A program made the position numbers and the translations under genes. From Eledone cirrhosa (lineage: Eukaryota), in the NCBI GenBank assembly GCA_964016885.1, contig OZ024756.1, forward strand, positions 43,586,001 to 43,650,000: DNA of 64,000 nt. The letters are read 5' to 3'. The notes under the pieces were generated by a model. That model worked only from the letters and a program-made list of their open reading frames with translations, was not told the origin of the DNA and did no database searches. Shown in pieces: positions 10,596 to 61,066 of this stretch. Every line of letters begins with the position of its first letter. Position 1 is the first letter of the stretch.

Positions 10596-10716
10596 CGCCT
10601 GAAGTGGAACGAGCCATCATCATCATCACCATAACTATTACCATAGTCCTCAACAGGTTGGGCAGAAATAAGCGCCGACTGCCCCCATCAACAGTTGTAA
10701 TATAACAGCAAGACAT
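10596..10716 (-). CDS. Signal-peptide exon of IgSF paralog 0 (remaining exons lie left of the window)
   Basis: MSCCYITTVDGGSRRLFLPNLLRTMVIVMVMMMMARSTSG followed by G|GTAAGT (phase 1). Identical to 38591-38711. Confidence 0.75.
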
Positions 10717-10870
10717 ACCTTGATCCAGGTAAAATATGAATTGTAACAGAAATAAAAAAATATTTTACAATAGTTTTTCTTGTCTAATTAATGTCTGTGG
10801 TGTAATAAAATTAATTAAAAGAAATGTACAAATTATAAGGTAATTAAACAGGTTAATCTAAACATAAGTA

Positions 10871-10991
10871 GTGTGTGTGTGTGTGTGTGTGTGTGTGTGT
10901 GTGTGTGTGTGTGTGTGTGTGTGTGTGTGTGTGTGTGTGTGTGTGTGTGTGTGTGTGTGTGTGTGTGTGTGTGTGTGTGTGTGTGTGTGTG
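10871..10991. repeat. (GT)n microsatellite upstream of the leader exon
   Basis: Pure GT run of ~120 bp. The paralogous run is at ~38932-39008. Confidence 0.95.
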
Positions 10992-11057
10992 AACAGAAGT
11001 AACAACACAATCGGTACAGTATATATTAGGTTAACGATTGAAATAGCAGGAAGAGGG

Positions 11058-11093
11058 TCTTAACGTTTCGGACGCTAGTCCTTCATCAGAAGA
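11058..11093 (-). ncRNA. Minimal type I hammerhead ribozyme motif in a Penelope-type remnant
   Basis: TCTT-CTGATGA-A-GGAC-TAGC-GTCC-GAAA-CG-TT-AAGA. The paralog at 39094-39129 has a GTC cleavage triplet. Confidence 0.65.
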
Positions 11094-11351
11094 AAGAATG
11101 AGAAATAAGATAGATTGAAGGGACGGGCGGGTCGGAATTGGAAAAATGTCTTTAGATAAAACATAATAGGTCCATTCATGTTGACATCTCTAGGAAAACT
11201 GTTGGTGCTGGCGTTTTGTGTATGATTTATTTTTTTTAGAAAAGTGGATGATGGAGCGCGTCTACCTGAAATGAAAAGAAAAACCGTTTTGGAAAAAGAG
11301 TTATACGTGTGTATGCATATGTGTGTCTGTATGTGTGTGTTATTATACGTC

Positions 11352-11966
11352 TATAACGAAATACACCTATGCTTTACCGGCGAAGATTCGAAACCGAATC
11401 TGAGGTTTCTCGCCTCTGGGACCATGTATCGTTGGAAGTTCCCACCAAAAGACAATGATGATTAACGTACATACCACCTGACCTGTGACCTCAGCTTGTA
11501 GACAGGGGAAACACAGATGGCTGCCCAGAAATCAACTCATATACACATCCTTCTAGCTATAAGCTTATTATAAATACAAGGACTTAGTAAACCCAACACA
11601 GACCCGAAGCAGCAGTCAGTGAGAGATAATCATGTAGGCACCAGCAGACCTTTTACCCTTTCTCTCACATTCTCGGCCATAGACACAACCAGAAATGAAG
11701 CAGCAGTCCTTGACACACACACACACACACACTTAGTAAGTTCATATTGTTTACATTCTACACTCATTCTATTCTTCCGTCTCACTGTATTATTGTAACG
11801 TCGAATTGATACACGCATGCACGCTAACTCGAAGTAGCTAGCCAGCAAATTAATGTAGGGATAAATTCTGTCACATATTGTTATTGTAAAATAAACGTTG
11901 TTAACAACACAATCCTGGCATTGTTCTTTTCATCAAACACCCATCAAAGAATATTTATCCGCTACA
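11352..11966 (+). mobile_element. Probable solo LTR
   Basis: Termini T(A)TAACG...CCGCTACA, 4-bp TSD CGTC/TGTC, internal TATAAA and AATAAA. The 5' part is deleted in unit B. Confidence 0.55.
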
Positions 11967-12964
11967 TGTCCGTACGAAGCTAATAGAAACGTGTGTGTAT
12001 ATGTAAGTAAAAGAGTGTGTGTGTGTGTGCTTGTAAGTACGAAGCTATGAGTAAAACTCTGTTAATATAAGGGTGTGTATATAGAGCTGTGAAGGGAAAT
12101 GTGTTGTTTGCATATTTTGTCGGTCTGTATTAGTTGTCAGAGATTATGTTTCTGCCCATAAGAGAGCCATAGGAATCTAGGGGTGAATGTACAACCCCGT
12201 GTGATAGTGGACGGGGTATTAAAGAAATTGGGAGGTGAGTTGAGTCCATGAGGGAAATAGAACCCAAGGCGGTGAATCAGATATAATTGTGTGAGTTATT
12301 AAATCGTGACGTTTTTTCTGGCAAATATCGAAAAATACATATGGCAAAGTTAGTTTTCCTTGTTTTATTAAAACCCTGAATGAAAGTAGTTAAAATAATC
12401 CGTATGTGAATAAACAACACATATACCACATATATATTTCTCTAGAGTGGTGAGCGTGTATTAGAGACAAATATATTTTGAAATGAAATCTAAAAACAAA
12501 AGAAGAACGACCAACTTTTAAAAATGGAACAAGTTGCAGGTAATATAGTAACAGGTTATTTTACCTCAACTGATTTGTCTTGTAAGTTAGTAGCAGCACA
12601 AATACACACTTACGTATGTAGCGTTCCAAATGTTATGATCAAAGAACGCCGTCTCATCATCTAACTCTCTGTAACAGAGTTCTCTCTCTTAGACCATCTA
12701 TTTCTCATATCTAAGACATTTACTCTCACATTCTTTCATCTCTCTGTCTCTCTATTTCTCTTTTACTATCAATCACATCCCCTCTCTGTCCTTCTCTATA
12801 GAATGGAAAAAGAGAGATAATTCCAAAACAAAATGGCCAGATTGTTTTTAAATGATAACAGGAAAATAAATAACATTGAATTCCATATAAATTACTGTTT
12901 CGTTTCATTTTTCTTCTTTCATATTTCCACCAATATTTGCAATGTTATTTATACACCTGTATAA

Positions 12965-58120: not shown

Positions 58121-58955
58121 AGTAGAGAAATATAACACTGACACAAAGACTCACACACACACTATAGAGAAACATAACACTGACACAAAGACTCACACAC
58201 ACACTATAGAGAAACATTACATTACACACACACACACTATAGAGAGATGTTACATACACACACTATAGAGAAACATTACACTACACACAAACTAGAGAGA
58301 GATATTGGACACACACACACTATAGTGAAACATTACATTACACATACATACTATAGAGAAATATTACACACATACACACGCAAAACTTTAGATTTCATAT
58401 ACACACTATAGTGAAATAATACACACACACAATATAGAGAAAGATACATACAAAGACAGAGGAAACATTACATTACGCAGACACATACACACATATATAC
58501 ATACATACACACACATACAAACAGTCACACATACACATACACACATATATACATACATACACACACATACAAACAGTCACACATACACATACACACAGAT
58601 ATACATATATACACACACATACAAACAGTCATACATACACATACACACATATATACATACATACACACATACACAGTCATACATACACATACACACAGAT
58701 ATACATACATACACACACATACAAACAGTCACACATACACATATACATACATACACACACATACAAACAGTCATACATACACATACACATATATATACAT
58801 ACATACACACACATGCAAACAGTCACACATACACACATACATACATGTGCACACACATATATATATAATATAGATAACATTAAAAACAATAAGTATTTCT
58901 AACTGAAATGAAACAACAAAAGTGATGACTAATGAGAAAATGGAATAAAACTTAC

Positions 58956-59279
58956 TTTTTACAGACTTTGGTGGGGATGTTTCCTTATTTGTGGCACATT
59001 GAAAAGTTGTTGCATCTTCGCAATTAGGGTTATTTTTCCAACACTGATACTCTCCATTCCATCCCTTATATGCTGGTATTTTACAGTCAAAACCAGATGT
59101 AACTACTCCTCTCTGAAATCCACCTGTACCTTTGTTGTAATTCCATTGTATAACCTGAGTTCCATTTCGTAGGAGTTTCAAGACAGTTACCAAATTTAAT
59201 CCACTAATTACCTTACATGTTATATTTATTCTAGCTGATCCAACTTCAAATGCAGGTGATATAGATTTGATTGATACCC
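58956..59279 (-). CDS. IgSF paralog 2, Ig-like domain 1 exon (324 nt, phase 1-1)
   Basis: CAG|GVSIKSISPAFEVGSARINITCKVISG...GFDCKIPAYKGWNGEYQCWKNNPNCEDATTFQCATNKETSPPKSVK|GTAAGT. Confidence 0.85.
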
Positions 59280-59459
59280 CTGTATATTAAATATGGAAGA
59301 GGAGAAAATGTTTAGACAAAGATTTATTTTAAAAATAACATATATAATGGCAGGTAGAGAACAACTAAGACAGAGAAGAAAACAATAATAATAGGAAAAG
59401 GAGAGAAAATACAGTTGTGAATTATAAAATAAGGAGGAGAGAAAGAAATCTGAAGATGA

Positions 59460-60430
59460 TAAAAGAGAAAGAATAAGAAGAAGATAAAAGAAGAAAAAGA
59501 AGCAGAAAAAGAAAAAAAAAAAGAAGATAAAAGAAGAAAAAGAAGATAAAAGAAGAAGAAGAAAGAGAAGAAAAAAACAAAGAAGATAAAAGAAAAAGAA
59601 GAAGAAGAAGATAAAATAAGAAGAAGATAAAAGAAGAAGAACATAAAAGAAGAAAAAGAAGAAGCAGAAGAAGATAAAAGAAGAAGAAAAAGAAGAAAAA
59701 GAAGAAAAAGAAGAAAGAGAAGAAAAGGAAGAAGAAGAAGATAAAGGAAGAAAAAGAAGAATAAGAAAAAGATAAAAGAAGAAAAAGAAGAAGATAAAAG
59801 AAGAAGAAAAAGTAGAAGAAAAAAGAAGATAAAACAAAAAGAAGCAGAAAAAGAAGAAAAAAGAAGATAAAAGAAGAAGAAAAAGATAAAAGAAGAAGAA
59901 AGAGAAGAAAAAGAAGAAGAAAGAGAAGAAGAAAAGGAATAAGAAGAAAAAGAAGAAAAAGAAGATAAAAGAAGAAGAAGATAAAAGAAAAAGAAGATAA
60001 AAGAAGATAAAAGAAGAAGAAAAAGATAAAAGAAGAAAAAGAAGATAAAAGAAGATAAAAGATAAAAGAAAAAGAAGAAAAAGAAGATAAAAGAAGAAAG
60101 AGAAGAAAAAGAAGAAAAAGAAGAAAAAGAAGAAAAAGAAGAAAGAGAAGAAAAGGAAGAAGAAGAAGATAAAGGAAGAAAAAGAAGAATAAGAAAAAGA
60201 TAAAAGAAGAAAAAGAAGAAGAAAAAAGAAGAAGAACATAAAACAAGAAAAAGAAGAAGCAGAAAAAGAAGAAAAAAGAAGATAAAGGAAGAAGAAAAAG
60301 ATAAAAGAAGAAGAAAGAGAAGAAAAAGAAGAAGAAAGAGAAGAAGAAAAGGAATAAGAAGATAAAAGAAGAAAAAGAAGAAAAAGATAAAAGAAGAAAA
60401 ATAAGAGAAAAGAAGATAAAAGAAGAAAAA
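59460..60430. repeat. ~970-bp purine-rich (GAA/GAAAAA/GATAAAA) compound microsatellite
   Basis: Almost pure A/G on the + strand. The paralogous site (~25730-25753) has only a few GAA units. Confidence 0.95.
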
Positions 60431-60840
60431 AGTCGGCTAGAGCTTCCTGTATATGGGCTGCTGTTATCGGCTTTTCGCAGCCCTGAACTTCTGGCACCAA
60501 CACTTGTGGCAGGCCATCAAGGTAGGAACAATAGTTTGCTACTGACACCCCACCCCATCCCTTGCCCTGAACTGCCATGGAAAATGTTGCTGAAAAGCCA
60601 CACATATCAATCTGGAATCGACCAGTATGTGCCCATCTCGGTACCTCAAAGACCAAATGAGTAACTGGGTCCTTGTCTACAGGTTCTATCTAACACAACC
60701 ATGCAGATCACAAATTTGTGGTGTGAATAGGCAAATTATGCCTAGGATTTTCTCAATCTTCCCTGGTTTGATACGGTGAAGTGTTTCTAGACTGATCCCA
60801 GACCAGTTCTCCTTTCAAGTCTTCTTTACTTCAAGGTGAC
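60431..60840 (-). mobile_element. Decayed Tx1-family fragment
   Basis: NYCSYLDGLPQV...CEKPITAAHIQEAL resembles DFRFYLDGVPRL...CKRPITA in the Tx1 at ~34490-34560. Confidence 0.65.
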
Positions 60841-61024
60841 CGCAGAGTACAAAAGCTTTGTTTTTGTAGGATACTAAGATGTAAAAATTTACAGTATTAG
60901 AGTAAAGATTTTAATTTTTAATGTGATGCAGTCATAGCGTTGTTTTGTGTTATTGAGGAATATCTTGATGTGGTATAGGATATTGACTGTCAATGGAAAT
61001 ATTTATGAAATGAAGTTCACTTAC

Positions 61025-61066
61025 CTGCAGTATCAACAACAGGTGCTTGTGTTGCTAGTATGCTAA
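61025..61066 (-). CDS. Candidate 42-nt symmetrical micro-exon of paralog 2 ((V)SILATQAPVVDTA)
   Basis: Strong polypyrimidine tract and TAG acceptor, G|GTAAGT donor, phase 1-1, open frame. Confidence 0.55.

Follow-up and report, generated by a model that had tools for sequence, protein, structure and literature searches.

Clusters in which a signalling receptor is accompanied by decoys include the SIRP genes and the CD33-related Siglecs. Adhesion molecules of the CTX/JAM/CAR and nectin type combine a V domain, a C domain and a transmembrane (TM) segment with a C-terminal S-x-V, and in CTX/JAM/CAR proteins the V domain is split over two exons and the C2 domain carries an extra disulfide pair. 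Immunoglobulin (Ig) receptors with an ITIM (a tyrosine-based inhibitory motif of immunoreceptors) have reportedly been found in oyster. The CEACAM design comprises an ITIM-bearing member with tailless, glycosylphosphatidylinositol (GPI)-anchored or secreted relatives, shaped by gene conversion and species-specific expansion (PMC2832619, PMC5112662; here and below, PMC articles are cited from excerpts). The V domains of Hydractinia Alr proteins have no C-strand Trp and are mostly without the B-F disulfide, and the proteins further contain I-set and Fn3-like regions and ITAMs (tyrosine-based activation motifs of immunoreceptors) (PMC9546547), while FREPs and V-Ig lectins (VIgL) are diversified molluscan Ig recognition proteins (PMC13428168). 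No diversified Ig receptor is listed for cephalopods in the excerpts of two reviews (PMC13428168, PMC11999971). Here we describe a cluster of Ig receptor genes in the octopod Eledone cirrhosa, in and around a window of 64,000 nucleotides on contig OZ024756.1 (C17; window C17:43586001-43650000). Our preferred reading, to which we give an even chance, is an ITIM receptor with diversified tailless decoys that would work like the CEACAM, SIRP and Siglec clusters without being a member of them.

The cluster occupies 42.54-43.80 Mb of C17 and holds 17 V exons, 17 C exons, 12 leaders and 13 TM exons, those from genome searches spanning 42.54 to 43.72 Mb. Genome searches returned 17 V matches (21 candidates scored, one with a stop) and 16 C matches (25 scored), and profiles run over stretches of the cluster added one frameshifted C exon. 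The exon matches are not due to chance, because all V-like and C-like matches in the 3-Gb genome sit inside 1.15 Mb of this one contig. Beyond the 12 leaders on C17 there was one weak 45-base match elsewhere, and the 28 of 41 TM matches outside the cluster were short, scattered and taken as chance. Searches with three divergent relatives from Octopus and Argonauta, which give lower bounds, found no members outside C17. Read in order, the exons form about 13 units, each with one, two or three V-C pairs: seven have an ordinary TM exon (the C of one being broken), five have a degenerate one at their end, where the change of a Trp codon to a stop and slippage of a T run give in-frame altered or truncated ends, and one is only a leader and a broken V. 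Thirty-two of the 34 Ig exons are open with all Cys kept. Leaders differ by 0-1 per 121 bases among seven copies, and these near-identical leaders include one joined to a V exon only 35% identical to that of gene A, the complete gene in the window. A common in-frame 42-base tandem duplication was observed at the start of two V exons (L025:9195-9245 and L037:2837-2887).

The gene that we regard as the founder lies just right of the window on the + strand, opposite in orientation to the window genes. Its leader is cut by an N gap at C17:43664041, and a V exon (C17:43677837), a C exon (C17:43702379) and a TM exon (C17:43714627) come next. Further exons, at C17:43715593, 43716457, 43764577-43764870 and 43797742, encode the tail and are compatible in phase. 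This tail is matched by Argonauta hians GAB1601880.1 and by the LOC115221679-type proteins of O. vulgaris and O. sinensis, and contains the ITIM L-H-Y-A-E-L (LHYAEL), a second Tyr 25 residues on, a stretch of polyproline and, at its very end, Y-A-P-G-S-S-V. The hexapeptide LHYAEL conforms to the consensus for ITIMs, [ILVS]xYxx[IVL] (PMC9546547), and recurs unchanged in isoform X2 of O. sinensis. The exon encoding it is single-copy, with one genome match among 109 candidates scored, and the three distal tail exons have no other match within 803 kb of cluster sequence. Four old duplicates retain the first founder tail exon, none retains the later three, and the ITIM exon is lost in all duplicates found. 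Neither ITIM nor ITAM occurs in any of the 10 duplicate terminal exons read under predicted splicing, so the window genes would be non-signalling derivatives; by prediction they are tailless copies and not the signalling receptor.

We propose that the founder, with its V and C Ig domains, membrane span and ITIM tail, would be an inhibitory self-sensing receptor, in which ligand binding would lead to phosphorylation of the ITIM and recruitment of an SH2 phosphatase. The dozen or so duplicates that lack the ITIM exon would bind ligands of that kind but send no signal, serving as decoys or tuners. Positive selection, for which parasites or pathogens are the likely cause, would diversify their binding faces, and in the germ line unequal crossing-over in a satellite would bring V exons to other C-TM modules and alter the number of domains.

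Codon models run on 16 open V exons and 16 open C exons indicate that both evolve under positive selection, seen as an excess of amino-acid change. For the C exons the ratio of non-synonymous to synonymous change (omega) under M0 was 2.05 (p 2e-6), and M2a was favoured over M1a by 2dL 50-62 in both domains (p ~1e-11) under two frequency models. Among ten recent copies omega reached 1.6 for V (p 0.03) and 2.9 for C (p 0.0005). Second codon positions of the V exons were 12.2% different, compared with 4.0% at four-fold sites and 1.9% in 60-base intron flanks (45/45 non-independent pairs), and those of the C exons 10.7% versus 2.5% at four-fold sites. The founder V and one duplicate V are separated by 1 synonymous and 19 non-synonymous changes. 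Together with the near-identical leaders, this places the ectodomains among those that duplication or conversion keeps closely alike, as in paired or decoy receptor systems of the CEACAM type. Pairwise NG86 estimates had dN>dS in 119/120 V pairs and 117/120 C pairs; simple pairwise counts gave higher omega than the codon models and were set aside in favour of the latter. Thirteen of the 15 selected V sites fall between the BC loop and C'' (C-C'-C'' strands) or in the FG loop (p 1e-4).

Models built with AlphaFold2 from an alignment of 16 paralogs have nine strands in domain 1 (pLDDT 77), as in a V fold with C' and C'', and seven in domain 2 (pLDDT 88). The top 50 structure matches of domain 1 are all V-set (Z 8.5-10.0), with ties between antibody VH, T-cell receptor (TCR), nectin-2, ICOS, CD8 and PD-1; compared with VH, TCR V, nectin-2, ICOS, PD-1 and CD8 it scored Z 9-10 at a root-mean-square deviation (rmsd) of 2.4-2.9 with 88-101 of 108 residues aligned. 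Domain 2 resembles Ig-like sandwiches at large (including SIRP-gamma D2, Z 10.1, rmsd 2.5, and SYG-2 D4, Z 9.4), sandwiches from outside the Ig superfamily (IgSF) rank above those within it (Z 13.0), and the matches do not choose between C1 and C2. Domain 1 is thereby predicted to be a V-set Ig domain and domain 2 a C-type Ig sandwich, in keeping with the IgSF membership put forward in an initial annotation of the window. Foldseek gave no match for the V domain at E < 0.001 and mixed beta-sandwiches for the C domain, V and C profiles matched no solved chain below E 0.5, and Pfam gave no curated match to the window domains, with only the O. vulgaris founder passing PF00047 (23.9 vs 21.8 bits).

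The V domain has five invariant Cys, among which C21 and C94 are invariant in 16/16; D88 is present in at least 90%, the corner residue is Tyr or Phe, and the C-strand Trp is replaced by an aliphatic residue in the 16 E. cirrhosa domains. In the C domain, with three Cys, C24, W40 and C88 are invariant, the C-strand Trp thus included. The C...DxxxYxC spacing, initially cited as an IgSF hallmark, is therefore kept as to the B and F Cys and D-x-x-x-Y-x-C; the C-strand Trp is missing in V and Pfam mostly misses the domains. The two odd Cys may form an inter-domain disulfide.

A homodimer model of the O. vulgaris founder ectodomain lends some support to the predicted V-V binding, scoring 0.43 against 0.01 for the best control, with contact agreement between runs of at least 95% and pLDDT of at least 88. 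The dimer mark was reached by 21/30 solved pairs and 0/23 single chains from microbes, by 17/29 and 0/30 from eukaryotes and by 7/16 in animals; it was passed by 1/7 eukaryotic pairs without an older relative, the alignment not being used. The predicted interface lies on the front (GFCC'C'') V face and covers 8/15 selected V sites under the F3X4 frequency model or 3/8 under F61.

A profile search of 1.84 billion representatives yielded 36 matches, 30 of which were looked up (28 named, 2 unnamed). All 28 named matches are uncharacterized or generic Ig-like proteins of Octopus vulgaris, O. sinensis, O. bimaculoides or Argonauta hians. The octopod relatives (LOC115221679 from O. sinensis, the CAI-series of O. 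vulgaris, Argonauta hians GAB1601880.1, and O. bimaculoides LOC106878948/-52/-54, LOC106880708-15 and LOC128250265-72) share the leader, the V and C Cys patterns and the tail, have TM segments 78-89% identical to that of the founder and cluster on one chromosome-sized contig per species. A short-tailed founder copy, P0025 of O. vulgaris (225-Mb contig), was observed on a chromosome other than that of the O. vulgaris cluster. Relatives from squid, cuttlefish or Nautilus did not appear among the matches, which is not evidence of absence; ESM Atlas held unnamed molluscan look-alikes at 0.93-0.95, and the C domain retrieved no protein by word index, a weak kind of search. None of four O. sinensis gene ids occurred in three supplementary files of PMC9712504 (117,602 characters), though other expression tables may hold them. 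Searches of CC-licensed PMC and bioRxiv literature yielded no description of the family or of five of its gene ids. The octopod family is real and apparently undescribed, its proteins existing only as database entries without function.

In a tree of 59 V domains (109 columns, midpoint root, the broken V left out) a 100/100 branch separates the 16 open E. cirrhosa V domains from 43 other octopod domains, among which Octopus paralogs interleave across species. The E. cirrhosa array would be either a separate expansion or the product of full homogenisation in its lineage. The Octopus expansions, shared among Octopus species, are mostly GPI-like or tailless, whereas the E. cirrhosa array is a separate clade with TM-bearing copies. 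Hydrophobic, GPI-signal-like tails were seen by eye in many Octopus relatives and in truncated TM exons.

A recognition role, put forward initially in the form of an immune, allorecognition or cell-identity cluster, gains support from the ITIM founder and from positive selection acting on the face predicted to bind; nothing specific supports allorecognition. Several observations weigh against a receptor with decoys. The five distal genes that end in a degenerate TM exon may be decaying, and no activating ITAM partner was found among the 10 terminal exons. Of the three ortholog isoforms seen, O. sinensis X2 has the ITIM exon whereas those of O. vulgaris and Argonauta do not, and the exon is therefore likely alternatively spliced. 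In the second Tyr motif the final residue is Gly/Thr instead of Val/Ile, and conservation of the C-terminal S-x-V speaks for adhesion. Omega for the 16 V exons under M0, at 1.14, is not different from 1 (p 0.29), the flank control failed for C exons (2/45 pairs; flanks differ by 24%), and recombination, which can inflate site tests, is detectable in V (p 0.023; C p 0.26). The C domain is selected as much as the V domain, which is unusual under a simple ligand-escape model. As to the dimer, the overlap of interface and selected sites drops under F61 (p 0.08), depends on one gap placement and was calculated without correction for surface exposure, and the model, made on an ortholog and not the E. 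cirrhosa protein, may echo solved V-V dimers.

The alternative that survives best, possible though well short of probable, is a cell-identity or adhesion code in which paralogs with differing V faces bind themselves or each other and sort neurons, sensory or skin cells, the S-x-V end of the founder serving to anchor junctions. Nectins, CTX/JAM proteins and the fly Dpr, DIP, Beat and Side families are the natural comparison. The C-terminal S-x-V and Y-A-P-G are conserved in Argonauta, O. vulgaris, O. sinensis and E. cirrhosa, a homodimer is predicted, nectin-2/3 and Necl-2 are among the tied V-fold matches and many Octopus relatives end in the GPI-signal-like tail, all of which would suit such a code. 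Wiring codes, however, are usually conserved between species, and here all 16 E. cirrhosa V domains stand on one side of the 100/100 branch, omega exceeds 1 and the ITIM is kept.

Less likely is reproductive recognition (gamete, spermatophore or mate tissue), with sexual conflict driving divergence. Giant satellite-filled introns are known from fly testis genes, and those of this locus are counted in its favour. Reproduction accounts for the positive selection and the species-specific expansion no less well than immunity does (the excerpt of PMC2832619 names both), but a founder with an ITIM is more usual among immune or self-sensing receptors.

It is also rather unlikely, slightly more so than reproduction, that only the founder and a few copies work and that the array is mostly debris of satellite crossing-over, in which conversion tracts and mutation bias mimic selection. 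One of 17 V and one of 17 C exons are broken, one unit has no V, six TM exons are degenerate with poly-T slips, introns reach ~0.49 Mb and pairwise counts overstated omega relative to the codon models; these points speak for it. The open state of 32/34 Ig exons and the retention of all Cys, however, have held over a tree length of 6 substitutions per codon, at which a neutral simulation expects stops in 15-16 of 16 tips (0/300 runs left <=1/16 stopped; one broken exon in 17 was observed), and coding change exceeds four-fold change and, for V, flanking intron change as well. Octopods are solitary and do not fuse, which counts against a true allorecognition locus (self versus conspecific tissue) of the Hydractinia Alr kind. 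With no Fn3-like domain and no ITAM found, such a locus is very improbable, even if clustered unusual V-set genes, an ITIM and predicted homophilic pairing resemble the Alr design (PMC9546547).

Returning to the receptor with decoys, the satellite that might reshuffle its exons is a 24-bp repeat with 10,585 exact genome copies, all on one strand, ~10,470 of which are inside the cluster (counts in stretches and eight samples, extrapolated). It forms seven tracts of 0.3, 4, 12, 34, 108, ~115 and ~493 kb (the last two only sampled; ~0.77 Mb in total, array lengths depending on the assembly), every one of them in an intron after a V and before a C exon. The V exons at 43425 and 43258 kb group as sisters, but the C exons paired with them sit in different subclades; the C exons at 43551 and 43390 kb are only 4 changes apart and the corresponding V exons 22. 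This V/C discordance likely stems from unequal crossing-over in the satellite. The satellite is without strong G skew and its likeness to vertebrate switch regions is positional only. We regard as doubtful, on a par with the debris explanation, a bolder reading in which octopods possess their own diversifying V-C immune receptor system, the satellite between V and C exons re-assorting the decoys of the ITIM sensor; its recombination would join V to new C-TM modules in the germ line and possibly somatically, as a switch-region-like device in a protostome. A mucin exon was also considered for the satellite and rejected, each frame having ~1,500-1,700 stops. The number of domains varies in Octopus too, where P0003 and P0004 (O. 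vulgaris) have up to five V domains and Thr/Pro stalks, and the C-to-V intron of gene C (C17:43565246-43574098; L010/L011) holds a different tandem array with a period of ~46 bp.

Within the window, where all exons are on the - strand, the initial annotation had described a complete six-exon gene of ~306 aa, and gene A bears this out: its exons lie at the predicted sites and form a stop-free 306-aa frame with phases 1,1,1,0,2, each internal exon having AG directly before and GT directly after it. A signal-peptide-like leader of 40 codons, phase 1 (38591..38711), homologous to the N-termini of the named octopod proteins, is followed by the V-set Ig exon (25314..25640; five Cys) and the C-type Ig exon (23982..24296; three Cys), both phase 1-1, a TM exon (21043..21155), a candidate 23-base tail exon, as yet unverified (20954..20976), and the coding part of the last exon (18770..18791), which complete a tyrosine-free tail of 21 residues. 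The protein has seven N-glycosylation sequons, and its TM exon has a hydropathy of 3.2 (19-residue) and is 74% identical to the Argonauta TM region. No stalk exon was found between C and TM under a strict splice filter; the orthologs do have a short stalk. The two tail exons are the least certain part of the model. In genes A and B the TM exon end has a 1-base deletion relative to the founder and the founder's next exon is missing; the 23-base exon restores phase into the last exon, whose acceptor is likewise open in phase 2 in two older copies, and this evidence fits the proposed tail splicing. The V exon is no invention of the assembly, since contigs from three public runs of one sample contain it with 0-2 differences; the same runs cover introns and contain no exon-exon joint, behaving as DNA, and are silent on splicing.

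Past the gene A stop, a tandem repeat of Thr/Asn/Pro codons (18215..18769, -) is likely 3' untranslated region, with AATAAA at 18054; as coding sequence it was rejected, all three frames from the acceptor reaching a stop first. This repeat and its copy at C17:42715 kb (L045) are open in the tail frame for 65-185 codons, and for 661 in one copy, and a long tail of Asn/Thr or Pro/Thr would result from readthrough or from use of another acceptor. Intron 1 contains, at 27530-31166 between long TA runs, a 465-bp unit with 100% identical repeats, 2.2 copies of which run one way and 5.6 the opposite way, either very young or an assembly artefact. At 45600-50680, 2.1-kb inverted repeats (98.8%) flank a 443-codon open reading frame with no Pfam match, an element that we take to resemble a Penelope-type retroelement, and broken LINE-type elements lie at 32843-35642 and 62090-63565 (an endonuclease match below cut-off; RVT_1 and a PHD finger).

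A second leader and a second gene body had likewise been recognised, and an array running past both window edges, with members now placed across the whole cluster, had been surmised; all hold, as do the single TM segment, the tandem arrangement and the absence of a named ortholog. The leader of gene C (10596..10716) equals that of gene A at 121/121 bases, and the body of gene B is open, with a V exon (58956..59279), a C exon (56391..56705), a TM exon (54022..54134), a candidate 23-base tail exon (53933..53955) and the coding part of the last exon (52676..52697), besides a degenerate second TM exon copy with an in-frame stop (53729..53833, approximate ends). Genes A and B are 53% identical in V and 83% in C. 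The description of the copies as two-domain receptors does not fit all of them: the V exon of gene B is the second of a likely four-domain gene, with another V (C17:43658 kb) and another C (43653 kb) lying upstream and no leader found up to the N gap at 43664041, and gene C has three V-C pairs left of the window (C17:43582 to 43441 kb). The gap itself, 200 N between head-to-head copies (L002:4041-4240), cuts the founder leader and probably hides that of gene B. The C exons flanking it share 5 kb at 98%, inverted, but 21 non-synonymous and 2 synonymous changes separate the V exons.

The locus offers a concrete candidate recognition system with a signalling member, putative decoys and named selected sites, in a family mostly missed by Pfam annotation. 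It makes testable an independent molluscan origin of the inhibitory-receptor-plus-decoy design and a locus-specific satellite that drives domain shuffling; if neural, it would be a fast-evolving identity code beside the protocadherins.

Compared with known systems, the family differs from FREPs and VIgL in being membrane-bound and in having no fibrinogen or lectin domain in the 8 full-length relatives scanned. With CTX/JAM/CAR proteins it shares a C-terminal class I PDZ motif (S-S-V / S-A-V) and a predicted front-face V-V dimer, but it has a single V exon, three Cys in C, rapid diversification and an ITIM exon. The likeness to Hydractinia Alr suggested at the outset does not extend to homology by architecture. 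Both are invertebrate clusters whose unusual V-set receptors escape Pfam and in some cases carry an ITIM (PMC9546547), but here the B and F Cys are kept, no Fn3 exon and no ITAM were found, the C exon joins the TM exon directly in our models, and the orthologs examined have no third extracellular domain. From CEACAM, SIRP and Siglec clusters it is set apart by a five-Cys V, satellite-filled V-C introns, the lack of a detected ITAM partner, a protostome host and the absence of a profile match to any solved chain below E 0.5, and yet like CEACAM1 and its relatives it combines an ITIM-bearing V-Ig member with tandem, species-specific duplicates that lose signalling, stops in TM exons, gene conversion and a diversifying binding domain (PMC2832619, PMC5112662).

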